DNA from: Hormiphora californensis
Taxonomy: Eukaryota > Animalia > Ctenophora
NCBI GenBank assembly: GCA_020137815.1
Contig: CM035360.1
Location: forward strand, 6,262,001-6,326,000
Length of the DNA: 64,000 nucleotides
Direction of reading: 5' to 3'
In this document: piece by piece, positions 9,055 to 54,533 of the stretch
Numbering within the stretch: the stretch's first letter is position 1
Layout: each line of letters starts with the position of its first letter
The notes under the pieces: generated by a model
What the model was told of the DNA's origin: nothing
What the model saw: only the letters and a program-made list of their open reading frames with translations
Databases searched by the model: none
Position numbers and translations under genes: made by a program

Positions 9055-10050
9055 CTAGCCTCTAAAAAACTTCTCAGTGCTATCCGTCAGTTCATTGCCT
9101 TTGCGAAGGTTGTTCAGATTGGTAGTCATGACCACTTGATCACCTCCACCGGTATGTGAATACATGCTAGAATGTCGGAAAAACACCGGGGATTTGCGGG
9201 CCTTCTTCTTCAGCCTCAGACTTATCAGAACAAAGTCCCTGAAGCTGGAAATTGTGAAGAAGTAGACCAGGGGGTTGCAGGTGCAATTCAGGAAGGGCGT
9301 GTAGATGGCCACTTTTACAAACCACAGCAGGTTCCCCGGGATGACCTTGAGCATGATGAGACCGTAAGGGAGGAAGGAGATCATGAAGATCAGGGAGATT
9401 AGAATCACCATGACAACGCTCTGTTTCTGGAGACCCCGGGCCGTGTGCACAAAGTAGAGCAGCCACACTGTCCCAATATTGATAAGGAGGAAGGGTCCAA
9501 AGACGAGGGAGGCGGAGAGAATGGGTTTCAGCCAGGTGTCCAGGGCTTCCACGGATCCTTTGTTGCACCGCATCATGACCGGCGAGTAGCTGACATCCAC
9601 GCCCACGATAAGGTAGGGAACCACGGTGAAGAGACTCAGTAACCAGATAGAAGCTGCCACGACGTATCCACACTTCCTGGTCCGGGTTAGAGCTCGTAGT
9701 GGACAGAGCAGACTGGTCAGTTTGGCCACGTTTATAGAGCAAAGCAGCCCAATACTGGTTGCGGTGGATATACTCTCGAGGTAGTTGGTAGCAATACACA
9801 GGAACCCTCCATATACCCATCCACCCGCCAGGGAGGTCCCTATAGTGGGTAGAATGGCCGTGATACCAGTTATCAGATCCGCTATGGCCAGGTTCGAGAT
9901 GAGGACCAGGGAGACTTTATCGAGTTTTAGGGCACGGAACACCACCGCAGCAAGGAGGACGGTTAGGTTGCCAGTGACAGAGATAATACCCGTGGTGGTG
10001 CTCCAAAGGAAGACGGAGTATCGCTCCACCCCTGAGATGTTGTAGGACAT
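9055..10050 (-). CDS. Class A (rhodopsin-like) orphan GPCR, intronless
   Basis: 331 aa, 7 TM; GN in TM1, LAIADL in TM2, WVYGGFLC, FLP in TM6, CNPLVY in TM7. DRY is replaced by AKL. Confidence 0.92.
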   Translation of the reverse strand: MSYNISGVERYSVFLWSTTTGIISVTGNLTVLLAAVVFRALKLDKVSLVLISNLAIADLITGITAILPTIGTSLAGGWVYGGFLCIATNYLESISTATSIGLLCSINVAKLTSLLCPLRALTRTRKCGYVVAASIWLLSLFTVVPYLIVGVDVSYSPVMMRCNKGSVEALDTWLKPILSASLVFGPFLLINIGTVWLLYFVHTARGLQKQSVVMVILISLIFMISFLPYGLIMLKVIPGNLLWFVKVAIYTPFLNCTCNPLVYFFTISSFRDFVLISLRLKKKARKSPVFFRHSSMYSHTGGGDQVVMTTNLNNLRKGNELTDSTEKFFRG

Positions 10051-22005: not shown

Positions 22006-27077
<5,072 letters not shown>

Positions 27078-27385
27078 AACTCAGATCTCTATTTATTTTG
27101 TGTGAAAGAAAAGTAGAGACATCTTTGACCTAGTGACCCTTTTTGTATTAACAAACAGTTCAAAATTGATCTACCAGTAAAATTGTTTTGAACGTCAGTT
27201 GAGAGAATTTATCAACACTATAGTGTTATACTTGCAAAAGATTTCATCATTTCTGATTTCCCATAACAAACAAATAAAAACTCAAATCATTATCATGTGT
27301 TGTTAACTCATATCAAAAGTATCTAACACATGTCTCGCAGCACCTCACGATTCTGGAGGGAGAGTCATCCCCATTTTCATCATCG

Positions 27386-28985
27386 TCAGTCGTCACAGAG
27401 TCCACAGGTCTTTCGGCAATACAGCTCAGCAACGTCAGCCCACCTACAGAAATCCGGAATACAGTTGAAAGCCTCGTCTTCACAGTCAGGACCAGGAGTG
27501 GGAGCAGGAGTGGGAGCAGGAGTGGGGGCAGGAGTGGGAGCAGGAGTGGGACCGGGAGTGGGGCTAGGAGTGGGACCAGGAGTGGGAGCAGGAGTGGGAG
27601 CAGGAGTGGGATCAGGAGTGGGATCAGGAGTGGGGCTAGGAGTGGGAGCAGGAGTGGGGCACATGTGCTCGTGTCGGCAGATTCCATCAGAACACCTCAC
27701 GGTTCCAGAGGGACAGTCACCGCCATCATCGTCACAAAGTCCACAGGTCTTTCGGCAATACTCAGCGGCAACTTTGGGCCAACTACAGAAATCCTTACAG
27801 TTGGTAGCCTTGTCCCGACAATCATGATTGGGATCGGGAGAAGGACCATCGTTCTCAGTAGGTCGGTAGGGGGTTGCAGCGTCGGGGTTGCTGTCACTCT
27901 TTCCAGTTTTGGAGAGGATAGGGTAGCTGGAGTATTCGAAGAGACCACAGTTGCTGTATCCTCGAGTGAACTTGATGAAACCGTTATCTCCCCAGGTGGA
28001 TCCCCAGGAGTTCTTTACCAGAACAAACTTGGAGGTGTAACCCACAGCGGTGACAGCGTGGTTGGGTAGTCCTTGACAAGTGGTGTCCTTGATGATTCCT
28101 CTTCGGTACTGCTGTAAGTAGCTAGTAGCCTGGAATGCAACGTTAAGAGCACCATCAACAAGAGCCTGGATGTTGGAGGACTCACCACTGGGGACATCCC
28201 TGTAGCCGGTGATCTTGGCAGAGACCATGGAGTCGGCCTTGCCGCTTGCCTTGCAAGAGCGTGCATCGGTAGCCTGATAGACATAGTTGGCAGTGGAAGC
28301 CAGTCGGCCACCATTCTTCTTGGAGTATTCGTAACAGTCACTAGGCCATCCACCGTTGCATCCATCTCGGTCACTGGGTAAGTAGGAAGAATATGACACA
28401 CTCATAAATCATAATACACTCATGAGCCAGTCATGAGACAAACGGACACGTTCTTCCTGCTTACCGGTTAATGTAGACACAGTCGAGGTACTCCTGCTCG
28501 GCGAAGTTCCTCAGAACTCCAGAGGCAATCTGGTATCGGGTCTCCAGACCTCCGACGGCTCCGAAGGTCCAACAAGATCCACAAGATCCCTGGTTCTTGA
28601 CCTCGGTAACTCCACCAAGGTTGGTCCAAAGGACTTTCTCGGGGGCGGCGAATCCACTGTTCTTCAGAGCAGGGGCGTTGGGGGCCTTGTTGGTGATGTT
28701 GAGTCCAAGGTACTGCTGCTTCTCAGCCTCAGTCATGGAAGAGAAGAAGTTGATTCCAAAGACGGCGGTGTCACTGTTCTCGTTGTAGTTGACAACCTCC
28801 TCAGCGCTCTTTCGGAACAGCCTGAATCTCATCCTATCCTCAGAGCTGGCATAGTTGAGTCCCTCAGAGGACTTGAAGGCAGTGTAGAGCTGAAGGGTTT
28901 CCTTGCTGCTCTTCAAGATTATCCTGAGAGCATCCTCGGCAGCGAAGACTGCTCCAAACAGACAGAGAACTACAATAACTTTCAT
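27386..28985 (-). CDS. Secreted papain-family (C1A) cysteine protease, paralog A: signal + I29 propeptide + catalytic domain + ShKT + 4-Cys module + PT/PA linker + ShKT
   Basis: Exons 28985-28465 and 28373-27386 total 1509 nt (502 aa). [12 protein letters not shown] and KNSWG catalytic motifs; CRKTCGLC twice. Confidence 0.93.
28377..28465. mobile_element. 89-bp TIR element forming a spliceosomal intron (28374-28464) in protease A
   Basis: 15-bp TIRs GGTAAGTAGGAAGAA / TTCTTCCTGCTTACC (1 mismatch), flanked by 8-bp direct repeats ggtcactg (28369-28376) and ggttaatg (28466-28473). Confidence 0.85.
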
Positions 28986-29395
28986 GTTGAATGATTTGGT
29001 GTTAGAGGATATTCTCACTTACATTTTATACTAGGTTGCCCTTCATAGCTGCCAGATGTTTCTAAGTAAATTTGGCTATTGTTCATTTTGTTAGCAAGTG
29101 ACTATTAAATTTAAATGCTAGCTTGTCACGACTCCCTTTGTTCTTGGCGTCTCTTTCATCTCCCTCCTGTCATTTTACCATTAAGTATGGGATTTTTTGT
29201 ACCCAGCTTGTTTGTGTGATAAACAGTTTATCTACTGGATATTTCCCGGATGATCGTTTTAGCTCGTGTGCTAAAAATATCATATATAATACAGGGTTTA
29301 GAAATATCGGATTTGAAATGGTAACTCGCGTGTGGTCAAAATCGCGTAACAGTTCACGTCAGTGAATGGTAACTGCACCTTCATCTAACCAATTA

Positions 29396-29535
29396 CAGTC
29401 GGATCCCAATTTACTGGGATGCTCGGGAGAAGGGATTTGTCCGGTAAATCTGGGTCCTCGGTATATCGGAGTGAAAAACCCTTAATTTCCTAAGACGGGT
29501 GAAGTTTATCCTCCCGGTAAATCGGGGTCCGACTG
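29396..29535. mobile_element. TA-flanked MITE between the divergent promoters of proteases A and B
   Basis: TA|CAGTCGGATCCCAATTTAC...GTAAATCGGGGTCCGACTG|TA. Confidence 0.85.
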
Positions 29536-29817
29536 TAATTTATGTTTTGGCCCAGATATAACTATAAGCTCAGACCGGCTCAGAGAATTTCATTTTCAAT
29601 ACTAAATAGTATTATTTTTCTCCATGAATGCCCCGTCTAGAAGTTAAACAGATCCAGACGTGAATAACCCGTTTATCACATGAACAAGGGCCTTAAAAAT
29701 CCCACACAATGGTAATTGACAGGAGGGGGATGAAAGAGAAGCCAAGAACAAAGGGAGTTGGGGCAAACTAGCACGTACTTAGATCTAATCTTCACTTGCT
29801 AACAAAATCCACAAAAT

Positions 29818-29916
29818 GAACAATAGCACAATTTACGTAGTAACATCTGGCAGCTATGAAGAACCAACTAGTATAAAAAGTGAGTGAAAATATCCTCCAA
29901 CACCAAATCATTCAAC
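29818..29916 (+). promoter_or_regulatory. Conserved TATA promoter of the protease paralogs
   Basis: GAACAATAG, ACATCTGGCAGCT (E-box) and TATAAAA (29872) lie ~45 bp before the ATG. Near-identical blocks precede A, C, D and the 63.7-kb copy. Confidence 0.7.
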
Positions 29917-31155
29917 ATGAAAGTTATTGCAGTTCTCTGTCTATTTGGAGCAGTCTTCGCTGCCGAGGATGCTCTCAGGATAATCCTGAAGAGCAACAAG
30001 GAAACCCTCCAGCTCTACACTGCCTTCAAGTCCTCCGAGGGACTCAACTATGCCAGCTCTGAGGATAGGATGAGATTCAGGCTGTTCCGAAAGAGCGCTG
30101 AGGAGGTTGTCAACTACAACGAGAACAGTGACACCGCCGTCTTTGGACTCAACTTCTTCTCTTCCATGACTGAGGCTGAGAAGCAGCAGTACCTTGGACT
30201 CAACATCACCAACAAGGCCCCCAACGCCCCTGCCCTAAAGAACAGTGGATTCGCCGCCCCAGAGAAGGTCCTTTGGACCAACTTTGGTGGAGTTACCGAG
30301 GTCAAGAATCAGGGATCTTGTGGATCTTGTTGGACCTTCGGAGCCGTCGGAGGTCTGGAGACCCGATACCAGATTGCCTCTGGAGTTCTGAGAAACTTCG
30401 CCGAGCAGGAGTACCTCGACTGTGTCTACGAAAACCGAGACGGATGTGACGGTGGATGGCCTAGTAACTGTTACGACTACTCCAAGAAGAACGGTGGCCG
30501 ACTGGCTTCCACTGCCAACTATGGCTACCAGGCTACTGATGGCTCCTGCAAGGGAAGCAGCAAGGCTGACTCCATGGTCTCTGCCAAGATAACCGGCCAC
30601 AGGGATGTCCCTTATGGCGAGTCCTCCAACATCCAGGCTCTTGTTGATGGCGCTCTTGCTGTTGCCGTCGAGGTTACCAACTACTTCCAGCAGTACCGAA
30701 GAGGAATCATGAAGGACACATTCTGCACTGGACGAGTTAACCACGCTGTCACCACCGTCGGATACACCTCCAAGTTTGTTCTAGTAAAGAACTCCTGGGG
30801 ATCCAGCTGGGGAGATAACGGTTTCATCAAGTTCACTCGAGGATACAGCAACTGTGGTCTCTTCGAATACTCCAGCTACCCTATCCTCTCCAAAACTGGA
30901 AAGAGTGACAGCAACCCCGATGCTGCCACCCCCTACCGACCTTCTGAGAACGATGATGGTCCTGCTCCCAATCCCAACTGTAAGGACAGGGCTAGCAATT
31001 GTGTTATGGAGTTCTGTCAGTGGCCCGAAATTTCTGTGCCGTGGTGTCAAAAGACCTGTGGACTCTGTGACGATGATGATGATGATGGCGGTGACTGTCC
31101 CTCTGGAACTGTGAGGTGCTCTGATGGAGTCTGCCGACACGAGCACATGTGTTAG
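29917..31155 (+). CDS. Secreted C1A cysteine protease, paralog B: + ShKT + 4-Cys module, intronless
   Basis: ATG at 29917 ([15 protein letters not shown] signal); catalytic C/H/N motifs intact; CQKTCGLC; ends [19 protein letters not shown]. Confidence 0.95.
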   Translation: MKVIAVLCLFGAVFAAEDALRIILKSNKETLQLYTAFKSSEGLNYASSEDRMRFRLFRKSAEEVVNYNENSDTAVFGLNFFSSMTEAEKQQYLGLNITNKAPNAPALKNSGFAAPEKVLWTNFGGVTEVKNQGSCGSCWTFGAVGGLETRYQIASGVLRNFAEQEYLDCVYENRDGCDGGWPSNCYDYSKKNGGRLASTANYGYQATDGSCKGSSKADSMVSAKITGHRDVPYGESSNIQALVDGALAVAVEVTNYFQQYRRGIMKDTFCTGRVNHAVTTVGYTSKFVLVKNSWGSSWGDNGFIKFTRGYSNCGLFEYSSYPILSKTGKSDSNPDAATPYRPSENDDGPAPNPNCKDRASNCVMEFCQWPEISVPWCQKTCGLCDDDDDDGGDCPSGTVRCSDGVCRHEHMC

Positions 31156-31497
31156 ATATTATTGATACTGTACTTGTTAACAACACATGATAATAATTTG
31201 AGTTTTTATTTGTTTTCCCGGTAAACACACGTGGAATAAGGTCCTAGTTACCATTGGTTACATGGTTACATACTATGTAACCATGTAAACAATACATAGT
31301 TACAGTTTTGAAACTGATGCCAGGTTCCAGGTTTCCCATCCAGCTGTTATGTCAAAACAGACCTATCACAGTATGAATATTTCACAAGGACGTCCCTCCC
31401 ACCCATTTAGTCTCCCCACTGTCTATCATCGTGCAGAAACCATAGGGTCTACGTAAGACGGATATATCGTAACTGCATGCTCTTCTTGTAGTACCAC

Positions 31498-31849
31498 TGT
31501 TGTACTATGTGTAACCCTTTGGGTGGATGTCACATGAGCCGGCCTCTCAGACCGATCACGTGACTCTCCCCAATCAGGGCGATGCCTAGCTGAGGTGCTA
31601 TTCGAGATGGTTTACCATGGATTCAATTATCTCCAGGAAACCACCTCGAGTTAGTAACCCAAAGCCGGCTTACTGCAGGTCACGTGTCCATTAGGGACCA
31701 CGTGGTTGGAGAGTATAAAGGGTACAGAGTTTTTGTGTTCGGCACTCTTCTGGAGATATCGATTTATTCAGTTCGTTGCTAATTCATTAAGACCAGAAAA
31801 CCAACGTGTTTATCTTTGTCTAACCCGGTTACAGGATTACTATACCACA
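31498..31849 (+). mobile_element. Possible solo LTR
   Basis: TGTTGTA...TACCACA termini and an internal TATAAAGG at ~31714. No matching TSD or PBS seen. Confidence 0.3.
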
Positions 31850-33180
31850 AGAAACCGTGAGGGTGACCCGGCAATCGGCATACCCCGGGGTAAACCAGTC
31901 GGCTCCAGTGACACACTACCAAATCACCACAATCACTCACGGCCCCCACTAGCGGTGCTGGTATTACTAAGTGATTGATTTGATTTGATTTGATTTGGCC
32001 TTCGTGCGCAGTAGGGTCCCCAACAAGGGTTCACGCTCACGGCAACCAGTTTCCAGCCTTAACAAATTAAATCAAATCAAATCAACCGGGGGTGGGATCA
32101 AAACACCCATATATTCAACAAAAAGGTGCACAAAAAACGAGAAGGGGGGGTTGAAAACTTCAAAAGATCGGGCTTTAAGAGCAGCTATTTACATTTTCAC
32201 CGGACCCCTCGTACACCCACCCACCGTAGCATGGGTGTCACATAGTTAAATCTTGATTCTCCATCCCCCCTCCCCCGAATCAACATCATTTTAATATTGA
32301 TGGACAGAGCTTTGACTTCAAACTTTGCCATGATCATGCTATTGACCCACTTTTCAAGAAGAAAAAACCTATGTTCCGGAGATAATTTTTCAAACATGAC
32401 AAAATTATAATTTCAGACAATTTGGTGGGAATTACCAGAATTTGGTGCCGTTTCATTGGGTAGTTGAGGACTGAGGAGGTATACACTTAATCAAAGCGAT
32501 TCTCTTACCTCTACCAATGTGAATGAGACTAACAGTGCTGCTTGCAGTCAAAATACGGTAACGCAAAATACAGTAAGGAGACGCGCACGGTGCATAACGC
32601 GCGGCAAAAAGTTCATTTGTCAGCACGTACTAGCGCCCTGATTGGTCACGGTTGCGCGTCGTCTTACTGTATCTTCGTTTTCCATTACCGTTTTCCCACT
32701 ACAAGCGACCGTGTTATCGCGATTAACTATTCATACGGTTACCCCCTTTCTCTCTTCGGCAGCTTCTCTTTGGCTGTTGGAAAGTGATGCCAATCGGTGT
32801 TGGGGTTGGTGAATTTTCAGCTCACGTTCTCTTACCTTTAGCTCAGGTCGCTTCACAACCTTTGTGCACATTGTACTGGCAAAGAAGGGATAGCTTCGTA
32901 ACCTCTAACGAGCAGCCTTCTTAGTCAGGGTTTGCTCACACTGACTACGACGTCATTTTAAAATCATTTCGTCACTCAGCTATATTAGCTAGTTCAATTA
33001 GTTCATTTTACAGCCCAGATATTTGGCCATAATAGCACTTAAATTTAATAGACACTTGCTAACAAAATCCAGGAAAGGAACAATAGCACAATTTACTTAG
33101 TAACATCTGGCGGCTATGAAGGGCGGTCGACCTAGTATAAAAAGTGAGCGAGAATATTTTCCAACACCAAATCATTCAAC

Positions 33181-34665
33181 ATGAAAATTATTGCAGTTCT
33201 CTGTCTGTTTGGAGCAGTCTTCGCTGCCGAGGATGCTCTCAGGATAATCTTAAAGAGCAGCAAGCAAACCCTTCAGCTCTACTCCGCCTTCAAGTCCTCC
33301 GAGGGACTCAACTATGCCAGCTCTGAGGATAGGATGAGGTTCAGGCTGTTCCGAAAGAGCGCTGAGGAGGTTGTCAACTATAACGAGAACAGTGACACCG
33401 CCGTCTTTGGACTCAACTTCTTCTCTTCCATGACTGAGGCTGAGAAGAAGCAGTACCTTGGACTTAACATCACCAACAAGGCCCCCAACGCCCCTGCTCT
33501 GAAGCACAGTGGATTCACCGCCCCCGAGAAGGTCCTTTGGACCAACCTTGGTGGAGTTACCGAGGTCAAGAACCAGGGAAACTGTGGATCTTGTTGGACC
33601 TTCGGAGCCGTTGGAGGTCTAGAGACCCGATACCAGATTGCCTCTGGAGTTCTGAGGAACTTCGCCGAGCAAGAGTATCTGGACTGTGTCTACAATGATC
33701 GATGGGGATGCGACGGTGGATGGCCTAGTGACTGTTATAAATACTCCAAAAAGAACGGAGGTCGACTGGCTTCCACTGCCAACTATGTCTACCGCGGTCA
33801 TGATGGCCCCTGTAAGGGAAGCAGCAAGGCCGACTCCATGGTCTCTGCCAAGATCACCGGCTACAGGGATGTCCCCAGTGGCGAGTCCTCCAACATCCAG
33901 GCTCTTGTTGGTGGTGCTCTTAACGTTGCATTCCAGGCTACCAGCTATTTACAGCAGTACCAAAGAGGAATCATCAGGGACACCACTTGCCAGGGACCTC
34001 CCAACCACGCTGTCACCGCCGTCGGATACACCTCCAAGTTTGTTCTAGTAAAGAACTCCTGGGGATCCAGCTGGGGAGATAACGGTTTCGTCAAGTTCAC
34101 TCGAGGATACAGCAACTGTGGTCTCTTTGAATACTCCAGCTACCCTACCCTCTCCAAAACTGGAAAGAGCGACAGCAACCCCGATGCTGCCACCCCCTAC
34201 CGACCTACTGAGAACGATGGTCCTTCTCCCGATCCCAATCCTGATTGTCAGGACAAGGCTACCAACTGTAAGGATTTCTGTAGCTGGCCCACAATTGCCG
34301 AGGAGTATTGCCGAAAGACCTGTGGACTTTGTGACGATGATGGAGATGACTGTCCCTCTGGAACCGTGAGGTGTTCAGATGGAATCTGCCGACACGAGCA
34401 CATGTGCCCCACTCCTGATCCCACTCCTAGCCCCACTCCCGTTCCTACTCCTGATCCCACGCCTGCTCCCACTCCTGCCCCCACTCCTGCTCCCACTCCT
34501 GCTCCCACTCCTGCTCCCACTCCTGCTCCCACTCCTGCTCCCACTCCTGGTCCTGACTGTGAAGACGAGGCTTTCAACTGTATTCCAGATTTCTGTAGAT
34601 GGGCCGACGTTGCTGAGCTGTATTGCCGAAAAACCTGTGGACTCTGTGACGATTATATGAGTTAA
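33181..34665 (+). CDS. Secreted C1A cysteine protease, paralog C: + ShKT + 4-Cys + (PTPA)n + ShKT, intronless
   Basis: 494-aa ORF; [17 protein letters not shown]; two CRKTCGLC motifs. Confidence 0.95.
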
Positions 34666-35126
34666 CAACACATGATAACGATTTGAGTTTTATTTTTTGT
34701 CATGGAAAACCAGACTTGGGGAGTCATAATGAACCCTTTATTATAATTCAGTGTTGACAAATGTTTTTAACTGACATTCAAAACAGTAGGACCCCGATTT
34801 ACTGAGTCTCGATTTATCGGGAGGATAAACTTCCCCCGATATAGGAAATCGACAGTATTTGATCCCGATTATATATACCGGGTACCCCGATTTAACAGGT
34901 AAAACCCTTTCCGCCGAGCATCCCGGTAAATCGGGGTCCGACTGTACACACGAAGGTCGTGAGCCGGCCTGAACTAGGCGTAACTCACTCTAAAAAGTAA
35001 CACCTCCTCAACCACTCAATGAAAATGCACCAAATTCTGGGGTTTCCCACCAAATTGTCTGAAAATTATAATTCTGTTCTCATATTTGAAAAATTATCAC
35101 CGGAACCTTGGTTTTGAGATCAGTTT

Positions 35127-35369
35127 TTGGGTACGGTGTCCCCTCTCTCCCGAATTAAACGTAGCGTGCGAGACAACATGAGACAGAGACAGCATAGGAC
35201 GATAGAAGAAAGAGGGGATAAAGTCCAATTTTTAAGAAAGCGAACTGGGGGCACGCGAATTCAATTTTTGAATTGAAATTGGTAGTGTGCAACGTGTGAT
35301 GTGCGTGAAATGCTCTGATTTGCGTGCAAACGGTTCGCTTAATTAAAAATCGCACTTTATCATACCCAA
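35127..35369. mobile_element. Mutator-like non-autonomous element with 9-bp TSD
   Basis: GATCAGTTT|TTGGGTA...TACCCAA|GATCAGTTT. It is inserted into an older repeat (34990-35420) whose inverted homolog lies at ~32340-32490. Confidence 0.7.
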
Positions 35370-36380
35370 GATCAGTTTTAGGTGTTTATGAAGAAGTTCT
35401 TTTCTTGAAAAGTAGGTCAGGTATTTTCAATATCATATTATTATCTTCAAAGATCTGGCCATGAAAATTATTTAAGAGGTCTTGAACTTTGAAGTCGGAA
35501 GTTTCGTAAAAACATGTTATAGCACAGCTTCTACTGTGCTAGATTGAACCTGGTTTGAAACAATGAACTGCAAATTCATCCCTTCGGAAAAGGATGAACT
35601 TTGAACACGCCAGCTCTGCAATATGGCATATTATTGTGTTTGTATCAGAGGTAAAGGGAAGGTATAGCCTCACTGTGCCGCTCAGGCTGCATATTACGGA
35701 TCCCTGATAGAACTGCTAGGGAGTAGAGCCAGAATCCAGATAATTCAATCTGTGCATTGACAGATTGTGTGCTTTCTTCACATGCATGAGACATCACGTG
35801 CGACGTGATCAGTAGAAAACACCGCCTATTCTCTGAAAAAAACACAATTCATTATGTGCAGATGGAATTATCTGACTCAATTCCCTGTGGTCCGGCTCTT
35901 TCACCGAAATGAGGAAGAAAAGTGAAGACACCTTTGACCCAGTGACCCTTTTTGCTTCAAAAAAAAGTCAAAATTAATCTACCATTGAAACTGTACGTCA
36001 GTTGAGAGAGTGTATCAACATTATAACTTGCATCGTTTTTGTTTACGCTCCAGTTACAATATAAGAAACTGAATCCAGGTTCCAGATGGGAGATTCTTGA
36101 TGAACCACGATGCGAGTGATCTGCGATCACATGACACAAGTTTCCATGTGAAACGTTTAGAGATTAGAGCTGCGTGTAATGTGTGTGTGGCTTGGTAACG
36201 AAATTACCCCTACCTTGCTGGCACGCTAAAAGCTGCTTTACTACCGCGATGTCATAGTTATGAGGGGAAATTTCATTACCAAGTGTGTTGCTCCAATCTC
36301 TAACTGGGCTTACCGAGACCAAACAAATAAAAACTCAAATCAGTATCATGTGTTGTTAACAAGTACAGTATCAATAATAT

Positions 36381-37622
36381 CTAACACATGTGCTCGTGTC
36401 GGCAGACTCCATCAGAGCACCTCACGGTTCCAGAGGGACAGTCACCGCCATCATCATCATCGTCACAGAGTCCACAGGTCTTTTGACAATACTTGTTAGC
36501 AATGTCGGCCCACCTACAGAAATCCTGAGTACAGTTGATAGCCTTGTCCTCACAGTCGGGATCGGGAACGGGAGCGGGACCGTCATCGTTCTCAGAAGGT
36601 CGGTATTTGGTGGCAGCGTCGGGGTTGCTGTCAGCCTTTCCAGTTTTGGAGAGGGTAGGGTAGCTGGAGTATCCAAAGAGACCACAGTTGCTGTATCCTC
36701 GAGTGAATTTGACGAAACCGTTATCTCCCCAGCTGGATCCCCAGGAGTTCTTCACCAGAACAAACTTGGAGGTGTATCCGACGGCGGTGACAGCGTGGTT
36801 GGGTCGTCCACTGCAGGTACTGTCCCTGATGATTCCTCCTCGGTACTGCTGGAAGTAGTTGGTAACCTCGAAGGCAACAGCAAGAGCACCATCAACAAGA
36901 GCCTGGATGTTGTTGGACTCACCACTGGGGACATCGTTGTAGCCGGTGATCTTGGCAGAGACCATGGAGTCGTCCTTGCTGCTTCCCTTGCAGGAGCCAT
37001 CAGTAGCCTGGTAGACATAGTCGGAAGTGGAAGCCAGTCGGCCACCGTTCTTCTTGGAGTAGTCGTAACAGTCACTAGGCCATCCACCTTTGCATCCGTC
37101 TCGCCTATCGTAGACACAGTCCAGGTACTCCTGCTCGGCGAAGTTCCTCAGAACTCCAGAGGCAGCCTGGTATCGGGTCTCCAGACCTCCGACAGCTCCA
37201 AAGGTCCAGCAAGATCCACAAGATCCCTGGTTCTTGACGGGGGTGACAGCTCCAGTGTTGGTCCACAACACCTTGTGAGGGGCGGAGAGGCTAGCTGTGG
37301 GAGGGGCAGGAGCGTTGGGGAGATGATTGGTGATGTTGAGTCCAAGGTACTGCTGCTTCTCAGCCTCAGTCATGGAAGAGAAGAAGTTGAGTCCAAAGAC
37401 GGCGGTGTCACTGTTCTCGTTGTAGTTGACAACCTCCTCAGCACTCTTTCGGAACAGCCTGAACCTCATCCTATCCTCAGAGCTGGCATAGTTGAGTCCC
37501 TCGGAGGACTTGAAGGCAGTGTAGAGCTGGAGGGTTTCCTTGTTGCTCTTCAGGATTCCCCTGAGAGCATCCTCGGCAGCGAAGACTGCTCCAAACAGAC
37601 AGAGAACTGCAATAACTTTCAT
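36381..37622 (-). CDS. Secreted C1A cysteine protease, paralog D: + ShKT + 4-Cys module, intronless
   Basis: ATG at 37622; catalytic motifs intact; NKYCQKTCGLC; terminal CRHEHMC. Confidence 0.95.
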   Translation of the reverse strand: MKVIAVLCLFGAVFAAEDALRGILKSNKETLQLYTAFKSSEGLNYASSEDRMRFRLFRKSAEEVVNYNENSDTAVFGLNFFSSMTEAEKQQYLGLNITNHLPNAPAPPTASLSAPHKVLWTNTGAVTPVKNQGSCGSCWTFGAVGGLETRYQAASGVLRNFAEQEYLDCVYDRRDGCKGGWPSDCYDYSKKNGGRLASTSDYVYQATDGSCKGSSKDDSMVSAKITGYNDVPSGESNNIQALVDGALAVAFEVTNYFQQYRGGIIRDSTCSGRPNHAVTAVGYTSKFVLVKNSWGSSWGDNGFVKFTRGYSNCGLFGYSSYPTLSKTGKADSNPDAATKYRPSENDDGPAPVPDPDCEDKAINCTQDFCRWADIANKYCQKTCGLCDDDDDGGDCPSGTVRCSDGVCRHEHMC

Positions 37623-38504
37623 GTTGAATGATTTGGTGTTGGAGGATATTCTCACCTACTTTTTATACTAGTTCGTCTTTCATAGCTGCCAGATGTTACT
37701 ACGTAAATTGCCCTTTTGTTCATCCCTTTCGTGAATTTTGTTAGCAAGTGAAGATTAGATCTAAGTGCTAGTTTGCCCCAACGCCCTTTGTTCTTGGAGT
37801 CTCTTTTATCTCCCTCCTGTCATTTTACCATTGTGTGGGATTTTTAAGGCCCTTGTTTATGTGATAAACGGGTTATTCAAGTCTAAACTGGATCTTTTTA
37901 TGTCTATACGGGGCAGTTATGTAGAAAAATAATATTTCAAAAACAGTCTCTAAGCATAGTAGCTGCCTTCTGGGCTGAAAAATAAACTAGTTGAACTAGC
38001 TAATATAGCAGCGCGACGAAAAGATTGTCAAATGACGTCAAAGATCAACAATGTGAGCTAAAATCGAACCTCAATTCACCAGGCTGCTCGTTATAATAGT
38101 AAGAGGGTTAGAAGGGTAAAAGTACGTAATATTTGTGAAGAAAATTGGTAACCCCCAGAATCTAGATATCGAGAGAATTTTAACTGTCCGGAACATTGAA
38201 CATATATAGCGTATTTTAATCTTTGTCAAATATTTTCATCCAAGTCTATTTCGCTAGATCCAATTTGTCACACGTCTTCCACAAGTTAGTGTGGCCAATG
38301 CTTCTCAAATGAAGTGCTAACTAGAATACTAATTAAATCGCATAAACCCTCCCAGAACAATACCATCCACTATCCAGTGTGAGATCATAAAATCCCTCCC
38401 TAAATCCCTCATTTAGTCTACCACCTGTTACTAGCTGTAATTCCTGGATCCCCCACTATAAAATATGGGCATCCCAAACACCTCCCTCAACTTATTCCAC
38501 AAAC

Positions 38505-39635
38505 ATGAAGTTTTTCACTATCATCTGTGTTCTTGGAGTTGCCCTCGGTCACGAGGCGCCCCTAAAGGAGATCCTCAAGTCAACCGCAGAGACTCTCAAG
38601 CTTTACAAGAGCTTCAAAGCCGAGGAGGGACTCCGGTTCGGGACTGAGGATAGGATGAGGTTCAGGCTGTTCCGAAAGAGCGCTGAGGCGGTTGTCAACT
38701 ACAACGAGAACAGTGACAACACCGTCTTTGGACTCAACTTCTTCTCTTCCATGACTGAGGCTGAGAAGCAGCAGTACCTTGGACTCAACATCACCAATCA
38801 TCTCCCCAACGCTCCTGCCCCTCCCACAGCTAGCCTCTCCGCCCCTCACAAGGTGTTGTGGACCAACACTGGAGCTGTCACCCCCGTCAAGAACCAGGGA
38901 TCTTGTGGATCTTGCTGGACCTTTGGAGCTGTCGGAGGTCTGGAGACCCGATACCAGGCTGCCTCTGGAGTTCTGAGGAACTTCGCCGAGCAGGAGTACC
39001 TGGACTGTGTCTACGAGGGAAGTAGGAACGGATGCAATGGTGGATGGCCCGATGATGCCTACAAGTATAGTGCGAAAAATGGAGGTCGCCTCGCTGCCAC
39101 CTCAACCTACTACTACAAGGGCCGGGACGGTAATTGTCGAGCTGACAGGAACAAAGATGCCATGATCTCCGCTAAGATTGTGGGAGCTAGAGGCGCTGGT
39201 CGTGGTGAGCAGGCTAACATTGCCGCCATCGCAGAGGGTGCCCTTGCTGTCGCTTTTGAGGTTACCAACTACTTCCAGCAGTATAGCAGGGGAGTTATCA
39301 AGGACACTACCTGTGGGGGACGACCCAACCATGCAGTAACTGCTGTCGGTTACACCCCTCTCTTTGTGCTGGTCAAGAACTCATGGGGTGGAAGATGGGG
39401 AGACTACGGGTTTGTAAAGTATGCCCGAAATCACCACAACTGTGGGCTGTTTGATTACTCAAGTTACCCCCTGCTTACAATGACTGGCAGAAGCGATAGT
39501 AGCCCTGACCAGGCTAGTATGTACAGGCCCAAGGAGGATGATAAGCCCGCTCCTCCGCCCAACCCTGATGGTGAGTGTGCCAGTGGAACCGTGAGATGTC
39601 CTGATGGAGTTTGCAGACACGAACACATGTGTTAA
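38505..39635 (+). CDS. Secreted C1A cysteine protease, paralog E (most divergent): 4-Cys module only, no ShKT
   Basis: 376-aa ORF; signal MKFFTIICVLGVALG; TATAAAA at 38457; ends CASGTVRCPDGVCRHEHMC. Confidence 0.95.
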   Translation: MKFFTIICVLGVALGHEAPLKEILKSTAETLKLYKSFKAEEGLRFGTEDRMRFRLFRKSAEAVVNYNENSDNTVFGLNFFSSMTEAEKQQYLGLNITNHLPNAPAPPTASLSAPHKVLWTNTGAVTPVKNQGSCGSCWTFGAVGGLETRYQAASGVLRNFAEQEYLDCVYEGSRNGCNGGWPDDAYKYSAKNGGRLAATSTYYYKGRDGNCRADRNKDAMISAKIVGARGAGRGEQANIAAIAEGALAVAFEVTNYFQQYSRGVIKDTTCGGRPNHAVTAVGYTPLFVLVKNSWGGRWGDYGFVKYARNHHNCGLFDYSSYPLLTMTGRSDSSPDQASMYRPKEDDKPAPPPNPDGECASGTVRCPDGVCRHEHMC

Positions 39636-39720
39636 AAACTCTCATTGGTTTTTTATTAAACTAAAGTTTACTCAACAATAATAATATGTTTGTTTCCTTC
39701 TGTGTTCCAATTAGAGACAT

Positions 39721-40147
39721 CTAGTCGAAGTCGGGGATGGGAGCAGGTTCACCGGTGGGGATGGGAGCGGGGTCGGGTCCGGGGTTGTCTCCACACAGGA
39801 AGGTCTTGACCAGGTTGATGATCATGTCCATGATGCCCCTCTCCTCAATTCGCTCCTCCTGCATGTTACAGATGAATCCCTTGAGCATCTCAATCACCAT
39901 GGAGATGATGTCTCGCTCCTCAACCTGGATGGAGGGGGTAGAATCGTGTTAGTGTCAAATGTTGTATTGTTCATACAACAGCACAAGTCAAATGGTAGGT
40001 ACTATCGTAATATAGGTTAGGGGAAGTAGAAAACTAAAACTACAATTTGAGAATTGCACCTAATATTTAAGGCACATTTCATACCTGAACGGGAGAGGCA
40101 GCGGCAACGGCGAAAAGGGCCACAAGGGCAAGAACGAAGACCTTCAT
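39721..40147 (-). CDS. 88-aa secreted peptide precursor with two repeated amphipathic helices (not in ORF track)
   Basis: Exon 1 40147-40085: MKVFVLALVALFAVAAASPVQ. Phase-0 GT-AG intron 40084-39925. Exon 2 39924-39721: VEERDIISMVIEMLKGFICNMQEERIEERGIMDMIINLVKTFLCGDNPGPDPAPIPTGEPAPIPDFD*. TATTTAAA at 40218-40211, Inr-like TCATTC 30 nt downstream, AATAAA at 39657-39652, strong C-ending codon bias. Confidence 0.9.
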
Positions 40148-41032: not shown

Positions 41033-44000
41033 AATTCCAGTCCATCGTAGGGGTGGGGTCCGGTCAGATCAATACTTGCACCCTGTGTCAGTCCACTTCC
41101 AATCCCACTATCGGCTGCCGGCACCGGGTCCTGAAGGTGTTGGAAAGAATTAAACGGGGAATGAAATCTAGATTACCATCTACATTACCATGGATTATTT
41201 TCACTAAAATTGGAGCAGGGAGCTGAGTAACTAGTTTTACTGTGGTTGTTATGGTTGCTATGGAGCATGTTTCCATAGCAACCAACTCACCTCCTCCTCC
41301 TCACTAGGACTCACATCCTCCACCACCACCTCCTCATCGCCCTCACCCTCTTCCTCCACTATGATTGGCTGTACGTTGATCACGTGATGTGGACTGTGAG
41401 GTGGCAGCTCGTCTGGAACGGAGTGGGTGTCATGGTGACGAAGATGCTGCTCCTCAGGAGTCATGGTGTCACCATGGTGACCATCATTGGGATTTGTAGT
41501 GGCATCACCATTCAACAGAGGTTGTGTGCCAATATTATCATCATCACTAGGTAACTGCTCGGTAGGTTCAGTAGTTGGAGCGTTTTCAGTGGGATCGCGT
41601 TGTGATTCATCCACTGGTTTCTGAAATAAGTGAATAAGTGAGGATTATAATTTATATATATGTCAATTAAACCTCGATTTTAGAGATAACCTGGGAGAGC
41701 TCGAACCTGAACACTTTGTGTTTCATCCCCATTTGTAGCAGTTATCCGTTTCCATGACAACTTCATCCTCAACTTTGTCATTTGTGGTAGATTCACTGTT
41801 AGTTTTATCCACTGCTGCACTATCAACGGCCTTGGATTCCTTTTCTTCCCGCTGTTCCTTATTGTGAACTAATGTTAGAAACTTGACACAATTATGACAT
41901 TCAAATTGAGGGAAAACAGTCGTGCCTGAATCTCAGGTCACGGCTATTTACCCCTGAGACCTCAGGGCCGCCGGGCCGGAGTAAATAGCCGTAACCTAAA
42001 CCTGAGGTTCTGTCACGACTGTTTTCCCCAATATTGGCAGTACCCTTCAATCTGTGCTTTAGTAAAACTACAAATAAACTTCCTCTTTTTAAAATGGCCT
42101 TGAAGTGCAGTGCAGCTTTTCATGTAACATATTAGGCACACACACCCACACAATATCTTTATTCTCTCACATTCTGAAAACCCCGTTCAAACCCGACTGC
42201 AGTATATATGCTTGTACACCACTGCAGCTCTCACCTTCAATATCTCATCCAAAAGGAGGATATTACTATCGACATTGAACGTAGCAACGGGCCTTGGTTC
42301 ACCCTGTTCTGTGCTACTGGCCTGCAGCACGCTACTACAACCTCCACTTGTACTGTTCTCACGACTCAGACTTCCTAACTCGGCTAGACGCTTATCCATT
42401 TTCTCCTAGTTGTGACAGACACACATAGACATAATGTTGGGTTGAATGGGCTGCAATCTGTATGACAAACTCACTGCACAACTCTATGCTCACCCACGCT
42501 TGCAGTTCACGGTGCTTCTATCTTTGTATGCTATCTCATACTACATTGACAGGCAAACAGGCTAGTGCTCGGGATCCCTTCAACGATATGATCAAAAAAC
42601 AACTTGAGGACAACGTCCTATAATTTCTTAACCCATTCAGCACTGCCAGCATTAGTCTTGCAAGATTGTTGTGTTTGGTTAATTATGAAAGATGCGATTG
42701 AATCATGCCGTGCTAAAAATAAAATATTGACAAGCATAAAATGAAGGCTGAAGGTGTCAGTTTATAATGTAAATGGAATCAATACGACAGTGCTATAACA
42801 CAATATGTATAACACTACCTCGAGCTAGAACTACTGCAGTAGACAACAAGGGGCAGTTAAGGGTACGCTAACCAAAATTTTTTTTCGAGTGCAGGGCAAT
42901 CTCTCACCGTAGGGTTGTAGGCCATGCCAAGGAGACCTCAAATATGCAATTTGAGCTCTCAAGTCGAATTCATATTTTTGCTACAGCTGCTTGAAAAATG
43001 TCCTGTAAATACGTTTTTGGCATCTCAAAAAAATTTTTTTAAAGATAGGAGCATGAAAATTTAGGGATTTGAAGAGGACATGAAGGTGAATAACCACAAA
43101 AAATTTTTTCGCAATCCGAGCTGATTTCCGGTCCTGAGATGGATTTCTTTTTTTCCACTTTAACGCCCTATTTGGCAAACTTCCGAAAACATGTGAAAGC
43201 TGTAAATTGGTGAAAAGTTGCGTCTAACGATTATCTAAGTGGCCATAAATTTTGGGCGCGTCCTTATTTGAGATAAGCTGTACAGAGTTTTTTTTGTGAA
43301 AGCCGTCAGTTCAGAAATAAATAAATTCTCTGTATCTCAAAAACGACTGATCGTAGAGACCTGAGACTATGCTTAAACGATTCAGAAGGTCCGATTTTGG
43401 GGGGGTCTTCTGAGAGACATTTTGCTCCTACTTCAACCGTTTTTGCTGTAATTGCGAAAAACAAATTCTATGAAAAGGGCAAAAGTTAAACTCCAATATT
43501 CTGTAATTGGGAAATTTTAGCTAAGAAAGGACCGAAACTATGGGAAAATGTGTTGCAAGCTAATTCATTCACTATTTGGTCCATATGGGTCCCTATAATC
43601 ACCAAAAACAAAATCACAAAAAATCCACGATGGCGAAGATGGGTTTTTGTTTTTCGCAATTACAGCAAAAACGGTTGAAGTAGGAGCAAAATGTCTCTCA
43701 GAAGACCCCCCCAAAATCGGACCTTCTGAATCGTTTAAGCATAGTCTCAGGTCTCTACGATCAGTCGTTTTTGAGATACAGAGAATTTATTTATTTCTGA
43801 ACTGACGGCTTTCACAAAAAAAACTCTGTACAGCTTATCTCAAATAAGGACGCGCCCAAAATTTATGGCCACTTAGATAATCGTTAGACGCAACTTTTCA
43901 CCAATTTACAGCTTTCACATGTTTTCGGAAGTTTGCCAAATAGGGCGTTAAAGTGGAAAAAAAGAAATCCATCTCAGGACCGGAAATCAGCTCGGATTGC

Positions 44001-47000
44001 GAAAAAATTTTTTGTGGTTATTCACCTTCATGTCCTCTTCAAATCCCTAAATTTTCATGCTCCTATCTTTAAAAAAATTTTTTTGAGATGCCAAAAACGT
44101 ATTTACAGGACATTTTTCAAGCAGCTGTAGCAAAAATATGAATTCGACTTGAGAGCTCAAATTGCATATTTGAGGTCTCCTTGGCATGGCCTACAACCCT
44201 ACGGTGAGAGATTGCCCTGCACTCGAAAAAAAATTTTGGTTAGCGTACCCTTAACATACCTTTAATTTCCCCTTGAATGCCGTCAAGGCTCGGATGGTAC
44301 TAAACTTTCCAGCCAGCTTACCCCACCACTTCTTTCCTGACTGAAAAGTAATCAGTGTTTTATAAACACCATACACCAAAGCTTTACAAAAGACTAGGCT
44401 ACGGCAATGGATTGTTATATCAATGATAACTCACCGATCCCTTGCCAAGTTTTATCAGCATTTCAGATAGATATTCATCATCAAGCATAGCTGCTATACT
44501 GTGGGCGTTCAAACCTTCCTCATTGCCAATATCAGGGTCAGCTCCTAACAGGGGATCGGACATTATTATTTTGTTTCAGGGTTTTACTACCATAGTAAAA
44601 ATGTAAGTAGGTCAAGTATAATGAACTTTTTGAGCTAGTCAAGGAGATGAAGAGGGAACTATGTACCTGCGAACAGTAGGTACTCCACCACTCTGTAATG
44701 ACCGTGAAACACAGCTTGCATCAGGGCAGTCCACCTGGAAGTATAAGATAAACTAAATTCCTGAACTACTTGATACACTCAGCTGAGCTCAGAACTCTCA
44801 AATCAAAAGCAAATCACCGTTAATTATTTTGCAAAACTTAATTCCTGAACTATTCAATACACTAGGTCGACTCTCTGCTCAGGCAGATATATCTATATTT
44901 TGTAAAACCAGACCCTTAGACTCACTGGTTCTTATCACATCGAGAGTTGATATCAATCCCATCCTCGTCTAGCAGCCACTTGATGATATCCAACTGGCCG
45001 ATCACTGCTGCAAACATTAGTGGTGTACCCCCACCTTTCAGTCGGCTATCCGGGGATTCCAGCTGCCCTACCAGCTCCTGGATCGAGAGTTAGGAATTGT
45101 AATCCTTGTTTTCAGTGAGGGAATATATAATGCGGCTAACAATCAACTACTCCTTATTCTATACTCTTGAACAAGACTAATCATCACTCTCTCGACAGAT
45201 TGAAATTATTTGAATTGTTCATACTTTCTTTTTATTCTAAAAATCACGGACACAGTGTCAGGCGAATCAAGAAATTATAAAGATTGGATGGATCAAATGA
45301 AAGACCTACTTTTACTATGTCGAGATCCCCATCCTTTATTGCCCCTGAGATCGCCTCACTGCTATCAGGCAGTGCTTCCGCTATTAATGTCATTAGTGCA
45401 CCCTTCTGATCTCCCTCTACTGCCCTTAGCACCTACAATGATTTGTTACTCAATAAATAATGATGAACTGCTGATAAAGCATTACAGAGAGAAGCTTAAT
45501 AGTCTAACCGTTAGGATGAATGTTACGCTTAATTTATATGGCTATGAGCGTTATATGTGAAGTGCAATAGAACATCTAATTTGATTAAAAACTAAATTGC
45601 CAGCACCAAAAACCAACAAGACTATTATTTAGATAGATTTTGGATAATTATGATTTAGGGAAATTATCCCAGCTGGACTGACGTGAAGATCGAACTCTCG
45701 TGTACACTCACTACACTCTCGTGAGTAAGAATAATTATAGGGTAAACGGATTTAGGGTAAAAGACTTTTACTAAAAGTCCAGTAGGCGGTTATCCCGAGA
45801 GGGGCGGTGGAGTGCAATCATCGTCGGCAATATTTACATAAAGTTAGTATAATTGCCCTAGTGTCGATGTCCAGATCAACCAAAATATGTGTACAAAACG
45901 GGATTGGAAACTAAACGTAGAAGTGAGGTAAATAATTAGTGTATCTCCATTCAGGAAGTGCAACATGGAATGAACTGAAATCTCATTGAAACAGTTCTAC
46001 TATGCAAGTGTGGTAGGTGGAACTCACCACTTCTAATCAGACATGAAATAGCTAGCTCATTACGTGGGAGTTGAGAAAGTTGAGCTATGTAAATTATCTG
46101 GATACTGTGCGATAAAAAGAGAGTACAAACATAAATATCACACATAACTAGGTCAAGCATTCTACGATATATGTGAATATTACTAGATCTCTGTAAATAG
46201 TGAGTGGTCTAGTCAAGGTGAAGATACACGTAGTAACTAGTAAAATATAAATAGGCGCCAATTATAAAACTTTGGCCGTCTCTTTATCTACATGTTTACC
46301 AAGATTTCATGCATATGGACATGGAAAATTAGAGAAAGAAATGACATTGCACGTGCAAAATTGCTTGTCTGGAACGATAATGGATCGATATGAAAAATCA
46401 AAAAGAGATAATAGGTTCGAAACTTATGACAATCACATAAAATGATTGACAGTGATCCAGACAGGGCAGTTAGGACAGACAGATCTGGAACGATTGGATG
46501 AGTAAGAACCAAAAGAAACAGGGAGAGATACTGAGATAGAAACGATATCTATATAGAAACGAGAGATGAGAGAGAAAGATAGAAAGATGAGAGAGATTGG
46601 CAGAGATATAATAATAATATAGAAAGAAAGATAGATGGAGAGAAAGAAAAAGAAAGAGAGAATGGCATTATCAATAACTAATCTTTAGTTTTAGTTTCGG
46701 CATAATGACCTCCCTCCCTATTCAAGTGAGTCGTAATGGACCAGTGACCTGATCATTGGGAAATTGTGTATGTGTGAGAGAACGGCCATTAGCGATCAAT
46801 GGAGAGAGGAAGAGACAATGAAGAGGAGAGAGGGAACACCAGAGATGAAGGAGAGATGATCATGGTGATGAGGGAGAGGAAAAAATCGGGGGAAAGAAAA
46901 AATATGAATGAATGGGAGAGATAACTATGTGATAAGGTGGTATACTAACAGGAAGTTGGGATAGATTCAAGATCAAACAGTATTATATAATGACTAAGAG

Positions 47001-53740: not shown

Positions 53741-54533
53741 TAGTAGAGTCGATAACTACATCGACCTCTCCCAATTGTTCCAGTTTTTGTCACATCTGTT
53801 TGGAGCCTCGACACGACCTCTAAACAGGTGTTACTTTTTCACAAACTGTTTTCATCTTGGTGTAATCAGCAGTTGAAATGTTGCTAATCATAACAAAAAC
53901 CTGACTAAATTTTTTCAACTTGGGGTAAAACCATGGGTGTCAAAAGTTAGCTCTAGGTCCCCTGAGTAACCATCCGGAGACTCTAAGAGATATTTCAAGC
54001 CGTTCTCCCGTAATCATTAATCCCGGTGGAGAAAAAAATACAATGCGGACGTACGTGAGCGCTGGCAGGCTGTTTACATGTTATTGTATGTCTCTCACTC
54101 TCTCTGGAAAAACCGCACGTGCGGTTGCGCCGCGCGAGATAACTCTTTCTCAAGGGGGAGAAAAGAGAGAGACGCACATTAACGTTATACATTAAAGTTG
54201 AGGTTGTAGGCAATTGCACGTACGTCCATACTCAAATATGTGCTCTACCGGGATTAATGATTACAGGAGAACGGCTTGAAATATCTCTTAGAGTCTCCGG
54301 ATGGTTACTCAGGGGACTTAGAGCTAACTTTTGACACCCATGGTTTTACCCCAAGTTGAAAAAATTTAGTCAGGTTTTTGTTATGATTAGCAACATTTCA
54401 ACTGCTGATTACACCAAGATGAAAACAGTTTGTGAAAAAGTAACACCTGTTTAGAGGTCGTGTCGAGGCTCCAAACAGATGTGACAAAAACTGGAACAAT
54501 TGGGAGAGGTCGATGTAGTTATCGACTCTACTA
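53741..54533. mobile_element. Foldback MITE with ~287-bp TIRs (TAG...CTA termini, Academ-like)
   Basis: TGT|TAGTAGAGTCGATAACTAC...GTAGTTATCGACTCTACTA|TGT. An alternative reading gives a 5-bp TSD ATGTT. Confidence 0.88.

Follow-up and report, generated by a model that had tools for sequence, protein, structure and literature searches.

Introduction

The locus described here raises the question of what a ctenophore does with a cluster of papain-like (C1A) cysteine proteases whose C-termini carry ShKT modules. It lies in a 64,000-nt stretch of the Hormiphora californensis genome (GCA_020137815.1, CM035360.1, positions 6,262,001-6,326,000, forward strand), hereafter called the window, and comprises five protease genes (A-E) next to a gene for a small secreted peptide. 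According to the available part of a 2019 review (PMC6733828), ctenophore pharyngeal juice has a pH of 5-6.3 and shows cathepsin-like activity, the enzymes of which are listed there as unidentified; the same source mentions the idea that these animals turned lysosome-like enzymes into secreted ones. A preliminary description of the locus regarded it as a candidate local cassette for digestion and prey handling, from which ShKT peptides might be released as Kv-channel blockers. We conclude that the encoded proteins are members of the C1A family with a new architectural variant and not ShK toxins, and that the local cluster as such, with its apparent tandem duplication and gene conversion, is ordinary. 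The points of interest are an uncatalogued cysteine- and histidine-containing motif and a candidate role in ctenophore digestion. Hereby, we consider it probable, with moderate confidence, that the cluster encodes zymogens of pharyngeal gland cells which digest prey in mildly acid gut fluid.

Architecture and family range

Pfam matches and catalytic motifs place the five C1A genes at the sites and on the strands at which they had been described, i.e. A(-), B(+), C(+), D(-) and E(+) (Table 1). Peptidase_C1 scores above the Pfam cut-off in all five (E-values of 1e-52 to 1e-54 for B-E; the match in A is split over two exons), and the catalytic Cys and His, the oxyanion Gln and the Asn are intact, with the motifs QGxCGSCW, NHAV and KNSWG present in A-E. 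The I29 propeptide of the cathepsin L-type subgroup, which contains an N-glycosylation site, is found above cut-off in A-D; gene E reaches 19.5 bits, below the cut-off of 24.4. The tails follow the reported layouts: ShKT, 4-Cys motif, Pro-Thr linker and second ShKT in A and C, ShKT and 4-Cys motif in B and D, and the 4-Cys motif only in E. The six-Cys ShKT frame is recognized by Pfam (ShK, PF01549) in A and C and falls just under the cut-off in D (20.5 vs 20.9); the profile misses the module of gene B, which is assigned by alignment of its six cysteines only.

Further claims of the preliminary description concerned secretion and expression signals. The N-termini are hydrophobic (best 11-residue Kyte-Doolittle mean 2.8-3.2), so that signal peptides are predicted by hydropathy alone. 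TATA boxes are found 45-48 nt above the ATG in A-E, with a TATTTAA variant 71 nt above the peptide gene, and the effective number of codons (Nc) is 35.6-43.8 for A-E and 31.7 for the peptide gene, which is short, compared to 51.8-58.0 for six other open reading frames (ORFs) of the window. These claims are thus borne out, while the statement that all five genes are intact holds as such for B-E and for A only once a 91-nt intron is spliced out.

A structure model of D adopts the papain fold with a predicted local distance difference test score (pLDDT) of 88. Foldseek searches with this model retrieve pro-papain and procathepsins H/L at E-values of about 1e-27 to 1e-25 (best 2e-27), with 27-39% identity to solved structures and plant and animal enzymes matching about equally well. 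One residue sets the family apart: Asp is usual before the first mature Trp of C1A enzymes, and 81 of 90 close members have Leu instead.

Among named proteins, those of Bolinopsis microptera and Mnemiopsis leidyi are closest to gene C (61-67% identity), and all named family members come from Bolinopsis, Mnemiopsis and Pleurobrachia, two of the Mnemiopsis members having adjacent locus tags. Members in Mnemiopsis include the loci ACHWQZ_G000252, G010795, G010796 and G009041. The database names of the family, such as procathepsin L-like or digestive cysteine proteinase-like, are automatic. Among the best 120 of 171 matches to gene C, several of whose non-carriers are incomplete proteins, the strict 4-Cys/His motif is present in 105, an ShKT-like module in 113 and both in 104. 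The tailed architecture is thus ctenophore-wide and the cluster itself a recent tandem duplication, so that the idea of a special local cassette is not supported. Outside the phylum the motif was not met: 12 of 17 named ctenophore proteins (one of them assigned by label style) carry its strict form, vs 0 of 23 named non-ctenophore C1A proteins.

A FastTree phylogeny of the catalytic domain agrees with this range. The tree has 129 rows, none being left out, and is divided by one branch with an SH-like support of 99. On one side are 72 rows with every named ctenophore protein and each of the 53 motif carriers, on the other 57 rows which include all 23 named animal, plant and protist enzymes. Orthology with animal cathepsins L/K/S is therefore not indicated, within the limits of FastTree and of few outgroups. 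Horizontal transfer from plants or protists was considered and is not favoured, as PDB matches include plant and animal enzymes in equal measure and no nesting is seen in the tree. On our best reading, the tailed C1A clade would be a ctenophore-wide modular family, so far named only in ctenophores.

Searching from a divergent member (P0167) reached further subfamilies as well as ordinary cathepsins. Among 80 loci on metagenome contigs only two belong to the family, both of about 1.3 kb and without neighbour genes. Two of the other 78, the marine C1A loci L012 and L038, have a Pro linker and an ShKT-like tail and lack the motif; the C1A-ShKT fusion therefore probably arose more than once.

The 4-Cys/His motif

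The preliminary description noted the four cysteines and overlooked that they belong to a near-invariant motif, which we regard as the real signature of the family. Its 19 residues read C-x2-GT-x2-C-x-DG-x-C-RH-x-HMC. In 90 aligned proteins it is the most conserved region, with a mean top-residue frequency of 0.88 compared to 0.75 for the catalytic domain and 0.41 for the non-Cys positions of the ShKT module. His15 and His17 are each kept in 162 of 163 carriers and Met18 in 159. The motif ends the protein exactly in 126 of the 163, and it is internal in A and C.

Scanning 1.84 billion representative sequences with a profile of the tail gave 58 matches, 55 of them new, and 29 of these 55 contain the strict motif. 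Of the 29, 24 match Peptidase_C1, four are fragments of 46-122 residues and one resembles the tail of the C1A-ricin relatives described below; none of the matches places the strict motif on another enzyme family. Most other new matches came through ShK repeats. The motif has no Pfam match at E-values up to 5, a PDB sequence search returned one ShK-like entry only, VIA-align found 0 of 48,161 chains at Z >=2, and the ESM Atlas gave one ShK-like cluster at 0.76. In the structure models the motif forms a short hairpin behind a two-helix ShKT (tail pLDDT 73), and Foldseek for this part yields nothing better than an E-value of 0.9 (AsK132958; hairpins of TIL/IMPI, ENF-peptide and LDL-A type). The motif is thus without a catalogued match, which does not by itself prove a new fold. 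It represents a small uncatalogued domain that is better conserved than the catalytic domain to which it is attached. As an observation on its variation, P0209-type proteins carry a five-Cys version.

The histidine-rich disulfide hairpin could serve as the fixed handle of the clade, most likely as a pH- or metal-dependent binding site, and might help to pack the enzymes into secretory granules or, once they are released, to anchor them. A C-terminal retention signal was considered as well, an assignment weakened by the internal position of the motif in A and C.

Proposed function of the tailed proteases

In front of the conserved motif lies a variable slot, filled with none, one, two or three ShKT modules or with a ricin-type lectin domain. 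ShKT is lost in E, P0106, P0188, P0193 and P0226 and replaced in P0210 and P0218, whose ricin-type match is weak and below the Pfam cut-off. P0210, P0218, P0196 and P0209 represent deeper ctenophore-type C1A subfamilies in which the terminal His motif is kept and a ricin-like or other Cys-rich module takes the place of ShKT.

Taken together, these features are consistent with an extracellular digestive function. Pharyngeal gland cells would release the enzymes into a fluid whose pH is 5-6.3. The I29 propeptide would be removed there, acid removal of this propeptide being established for C1A enzymes; the ShKT module may be a binding arm without toxicity, holding the enzyme on prey, on mucus or at the gut surface. 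The family thus provides likely candidates for the acid cysteine proteases of the ctenophore gut, i.e. concrete enzymes for the study of extracellular digestion, with orthologues in Mnemiopsis and Bolinopsis. The earlier proposal of secreted, highly expressed digestive proteases stands as the best reading: its signal peptides and codon bias are found, and high expression and a role in the gut are what we infer from them and from the published cathepsin-like activity of pharyngeal juice.

Several observations weigh against this reading. Most family rows are unnamed and the restriction to ctenophores is based on 17 proteins with names, which represent three or four species, so that the taxonomic range is not proven; in addition, the 129-row FastTree draws its outgroups from one search and may show long-branch grouping. 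The role given to the motif is purely a matter of inference, with no structural match, and its internal position in A and C argues against any signal that needs a free C-terminus. The RNA-type run X22 gave only short (60-nt) pieces whose sequence continues as that of other paralogues, and contigs give no ranking of expression. Inhibitor work cited in the available part of the review points to cathepsin B-like plus tryptic activity, vs the I29 cathepsin L type found here (PMC6733828). Finally, signal peptide, I29 and the N-glycosylation site in the propeptide, the usual cathepsin layout, fit a lysosomal enzyme equally well.

The last point leads to the possibility that the genes encode lysosomal or food-vacuole proteases of phagocytic gut-canal cells, with the terminal motif as a lysosomal sorting tag. 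Ctenophore canal cells do phagocytose food, as the review states (PMC6733828), and a motif that is terminal in most carriers would suit such a tag. Its internal position in A and C would not, and the separation of the family from the cathepsin L/K/S rows in the tree likewise speaks against a lysosomal function. Disulfide-rich modules on long acidic or Pro-Thr linkers, together with repeated duplication, fit extracellular work better, and an analogous cluster in Aphanomyces was found in the host apoplast, as described in the accessible text of PMC10084794. We hence regard a lysosomal function as unlikely, though as an alternative to be taken seriously.

Next to be weighed against the digestive reading is the release of the ShKT modules as Kv-channel blockers that subdue prey. 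The modules match the ShK family, albeit weakly, and are the fastest-changing part of A-D: the proportion of non-synonymous differences (pN) is 0.16-0.26 in five of six pairs vs 0.05-0.10 for the catalytic domain, and the B/D pair shows 19 non-synonymous vs 2 synonymous differences. A stand-alone polyprotein (P0143) consists of six near-identical ShKT modules of the protease type, an ShK-marked tentacle cell type is described for Mnemiopsis in the part of PMC6278862 available to us, and the toxin dyad is, according to the text at hand of PMC6409789, not strictly needed for channel effects. Scored from the PDB ShK alignment by a definition taken from the latter source, none of the 6 window modules and 3 of the 113 modules of the family have the dyad of Lys plus an aromatic residue, and Lys occupies that place in 4 of 113; the first ShKT of A indeed combines Lys with Val, as had been stated. 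The near absence of the dyad makes released Kv toxins unlikely. Moreover, module charge ranges from -6 to +12, dibasic sites are missing on either side of the ShKT modules, several relatives drop or swap the module altogether, and the nearest fold match, AsK132958, is both weak (E-value 0.92) and, as given in the available portion of PMC5793123, inactive on Kv channels. Since ctenophores, as reported in the accessible part of PMC9525235, also cut precursors at acidic sites, release of ShKT peptides could still occur. The ratio of pN to the proportion of synonymous differences (pS) is below 1 in five of six pairs and exceeds 1 in B/D only. Positive selection on the module is not claimed on this ground, with the addition that conversion blurs the counts. 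All in all, the proposed release of Kv blockers is not supported, and we consider a toxin function very improbable.

Extracellular roles other than digestion, such as mucus defence, wound healing or matrix remodelling, also have to be considered, as in other systems proteases with ShKT modules serve morphogenesis and migration through host tissue besides digestion, judging from the available text of PMC6409789. Nothing found here points to such a role; the strong codon bias and the many paralogues are more in keeping with bulk enzymes, which makes it improbable in our view.

The neighbouring peptide gene

The peptide gene beside E encodes a precursor with a signal peptide, two 15-residue amphipathic helices, each ending in Cys and standing behind xEER, and an acidic Pro-rich tail. 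The hydrophobic moments of the helices are 0.49 and 0.48, values reached by 13 and 10 of 2000 shuffles, and their net charges are -1 and 0. Exon 2 has no Pfam match, the Atlas gave no usable match, and the database relatives found are five close unnamed sequences. Our guess would be a disulfide-linked pair of membrane-active helices.

It is conceivable that this peptide is made in the same gland cell as the proteases and matured at xEER, and that its helices render prey or microbes permeable during digestion by the proteases. The two genes are adjacent, with 86 nt between the stop codons of E and the peptide gene, the proteases and the peptide gene are all strongly codon-biased, and the amphipathic moments are rarely reached by chance. 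In addition, an E-box word near the TATA box is common to the peptide gene and A-E. As an exact 8-mer shared with the peptide promoter this word lies at a chance level of about 7%, with 281 of 4000 random 120-mers matching. Four gapped words are common to A-D, E and the peptide promoter, an overlap reached by 5 of 2000 random pairs under a word form chosen after seeing the data and a null that was not promoter DNA. Promoter sharing is near chance over 400 nt and weak over 120 nt, and gene E shares motifs by descent. Joint action is further called into question by the phylum-wide range of the proteases, compared to only five close relatives of the peptide, by helices that are not cationic, and by the fact that enzymes other than these also cleave after Arg. 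Co-secretion of the peptide with the proteases is possible; the full lyse-and-digest scheme appears doubtful.

A broader and speculative proposal would have a papain-like radiation of their own, and not the trypsin/zymogen set of cnidarians and bilaterians, underlie extracellular digestion in ctenophores. In this proposal the His-hairpin would be a pH- or metal-switched tag for granule sorting or anchoring, ShKT and lectin domains would be swap-in targeting modules, and the peptide, co-secreted in this species, would open prey cells and thereby complete a unit that lyses and digests. We hold this combination as a whole to be rather unlikely.

The intron of gene A

The preliminary description also overlooked that the intron of gene A is of a transposon type. 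Unspliced, gene A would stop after 174 residues; the intron is presumably spliced out, as its GT-AG ends and the alignment to B-E suggest. Nearly all of it is formed by an 89-nt element resembling a miniature inverted-repeat transposable element (MITE), with terminal inverted repeats (TIR) and a flanking target-site duplication (TSD). Hereby, the donor GT comes from the end of the element and the acceptor AG from the duplicated 8-mer. Splicing leaves six extra bases, so that the respective loop has six residues in A vs four in B, C and D (net +2), and the reading frame is intact on both sides although the TSD carries two changes. Among 7616 windows of 89 nt, inverted ends matching at >=12 of 15 positions were found, on both strands, for this element alone.

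The combination of TIR, TSD, splice sites at the ends and absence of the intron from the paralogues corresponds to an introner of the MITE type, and the intron may be a candidate for such an introner in a ctenophore. In MITE-type introners, as characterized in the available text of 10.1101/2022.06.06.494994, TIR and TSD are present, the element brings the 5' splice site and the duplication gives the 3' site; an introner with an 8-bp TSD and added residues is on record there. Gene A shares this anatomy and the added codons, and differs in that one intron copy is seen and no family is shown. No second copy of the element occurs in the window and none among the metagenome contigs (0 matches). Two contigs of the DNA run X5 depart from the window sequence at 28466/28467, the end of the element, which hints at copies elsewhere; read depth is raised in the bin of the element, in a manner indistinguishable from paralogue reads. 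A joint across the intron was not seen in the RNA pieces of run X22. The main text of two introner surveys does not name ctenophores, which their supplementary species tables may do, and a literature search for introner plus ctenophore gave no relevant paper. If confirmed, a transposon would have given rise to an intron in a ctenophore here, a single, clean example in which the empty site can be seen in four paralogues. Nearby, at position 28346, a contig of run X1 shows a 7-nt coding insertion beside the GGW motif, which resembles a transposon footprint and would shift the frame in some copy.

Cluster history and other features of the window

A-D are mutually 82-90% identical, and E shares 61-67% with them. 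In a quick tree of the family (careful search unfinished; 23 rows dropped by the motif cutter) A-D and one unnamed protein form a tight group with a support of 99, while E branches apart, from which a recent local expansion beside one older paralogue follows. The cluster thus appears to have arisen by recent tandem and inverted duplication. D and E share an identical 293-nt tract (about 37110-37405 and 38720-39015), the rest being about 50% diverged at silent sites; this identity points to either gene conversion or an assembly merge, and run X1 shows different letters inside the tract. All 30 bins of the cluster are covered by DNA runs from two studies, so that the cluster is not unique to one assembly; hereby, the run with the best coverage may itself have supplied the window sequence, and none of the listed contigs extends across the cluster.

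Behind the internal motif of A and C come a Pro-Thr minisatellite and an ShKT resembling that of D. Directly after the stop codon of A lies a decayed second copy of the motif, and the stretch 27341-27509 is 72% identical to 27693-27845. The decayed copy argues for a duplication of the ShKT plus 4-Cys unit with loss of the outer motif; the longer tails of A and C would thus have originated from an internal duplication followed by decay. A sixth gene copy, comprising the promoter and 5' half only, is either a decayed pseudogene or poorly polished sequence.

Table 1. Positions of the protease genes, their tail modules and associated features in the window
Feature	Position	Strand	Remarks
Gene A, C1A protease	28985-27386 (exons 28985-28465 and 28373-27386)	-	502 aa if spliced; signal, I29, C1, ShKT, 4-Cys/His, PT linker, ShKT; Pfam; splicing from GT-AG ends and alignment to B-E
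Gene A, first ShKT	27734..27820	-	Lys-Val at dyad-equivalent place
Gene A, 4-Cys/His motif	27659..27715	-	internal
Gene A, Pro-Thr minisatellite linker	27485-27658	-	
Gene A, second ShKT	27395-27484	-	
Gene A, intron	28464-28374	-	91 nt, GT-AG; absent from B-E
MITE-like element in gene A intron	28377-28465	-	89 nt; 15-nt TIR, 14/15 match
TSD flanking the element	28466-28473 and 28369-28376		8 bp, 6/8 match
Decayed second 4-Cys/His coding copy	27323..27385	-	directly after stop codon of A
Gene B, C1A protease	29917..31155	+	intronless, 412 aa; ShKT 30979-31068, 4-Cys/His 31096-31152
Gene C, C1A protease	33181..34665	+	intronless, 494 aa; ShKT 34246-34332, 4-Cys/His 34351-34407, PT linker, second ShKT 34558-34647
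Gene D, C1A protease	36381..37622	-	intronless, 413 aa; ShKT 36465-36554, 4-Cys/His 36384-36440
Gene E, C1A protease	38505..39635	+	older, more divergent paralogue, 376 aa, without ShKT; 4-Cys/His 39576-39632
Peptide precursor gene	39721..40147	-	88 aa; intron 40084-39925; five close relatives run across the same junction
E-box word ACANNTGG	A 29052..29059 (-); B 29843; C 33103; D 37689; E 38421 (reversed); peptide gene 40263		28-51 nt above TATA; weak lead
Sixth protease copy	about 63220-63706, noted up to 64000	-	promoter and 5' half only; 81% identical to B, 44 gap openings

High-copy interspersed repeats lie between the protease genes at 29394-29537, 32530-32715 and 34810-34948, with a depth thousands of times above background, and possibly served as substrates for the inverted duplications. 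At 42856-44255 a perfect 610-nt inverted repeat with a 180-nt spacer represents a young foldback/MITE element; similar, more decayed palindromes are found at 2312-2897 and 53741-54533. Other genes of the window (25700-27077, 3305-4903, 9055-10098, 57955-59043, 54950-56503), none of them tied to the protease cluster, comprise a class-III aminotransferase gene ending 300 nt from A, a major facilitator superfamily (MFS) transporter, rhodopsin-type G-protein-coupled receptors and a reverse transcriptase ORF resembling long interspersed nuclear elements.

Comparison with known systems

In their catalytic part the window enzymes resemble pro-papain, stem bromelain, procathepsins H/L/K and the digestive cathepsins L of Tenebrio and Fasciola, with the same I29, Gln-Cys-His-Asn set and fold; compared to these papain/cathepsin L-type zymogens they add the long modular tail and the Leu before the first mature Trp. 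C-terminal extensions of C1A enzymes are known from RD21/triticain-alpha (Pro-rich plus granulin) and cruzipain. The ctenophore family shares with them the Pro-rich hinge followed by a Cys-rich domain, the domain itself being different. A search of titles and abstract openings, mostly outside the subscription literature, found no paper on C1A-ShKT fusions or on this ctenophore clade, and a survey of the papain family (PMC10380794) contains 0 matches for ShK or ctenophor in its text and one supplement.

With the anemone Kv toxins ShK and BgK and with AsK132958 the window modules share the six-Cys frame and the CxKTCxxC end. The predicted two-helix fold superimposes on the 29-residue AsK132958 with a template-modelling score (TM) of 0.80 and a root-mean-square deviation of 1.3 (E-value 0.92). 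Unlike ShK and BgK, the window modules are embedded in a protease, lack the Lys-Tyr dyad and have a shorter first loop. Closer in setting are the trypsin-ShK and astacin-ShK proteases of cnidarians, ctenophores and molluscs, secreted gut or gland enzymes with the same ShKT appendage (10.1101/645952; PMC6409789, as far as available), whereas the catalytic domain of the window genes is a cysteine protease. For cnidarian gut trypsins, the accessible text of 10.1101/645952 describes ShK modules as easily gained and lost, their role being given as unknown.

The closest working parallel is the oomycete pathogen Aphanomyces euteiches, for which the available part of PMC10084794 describes 12 clustered C1A enzymes that are secreted and combine PT linkers with exchangeable binding modules. 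Both systems combine tandem secreted C1A genes, PT-repeat linkers and variable C-terminal modules or none. In A. euteiches the modules are CBM1, CAP or ML, and no common terminal motif is reported in that part of the source. We regard the resemblance between the two clusters as convergent.

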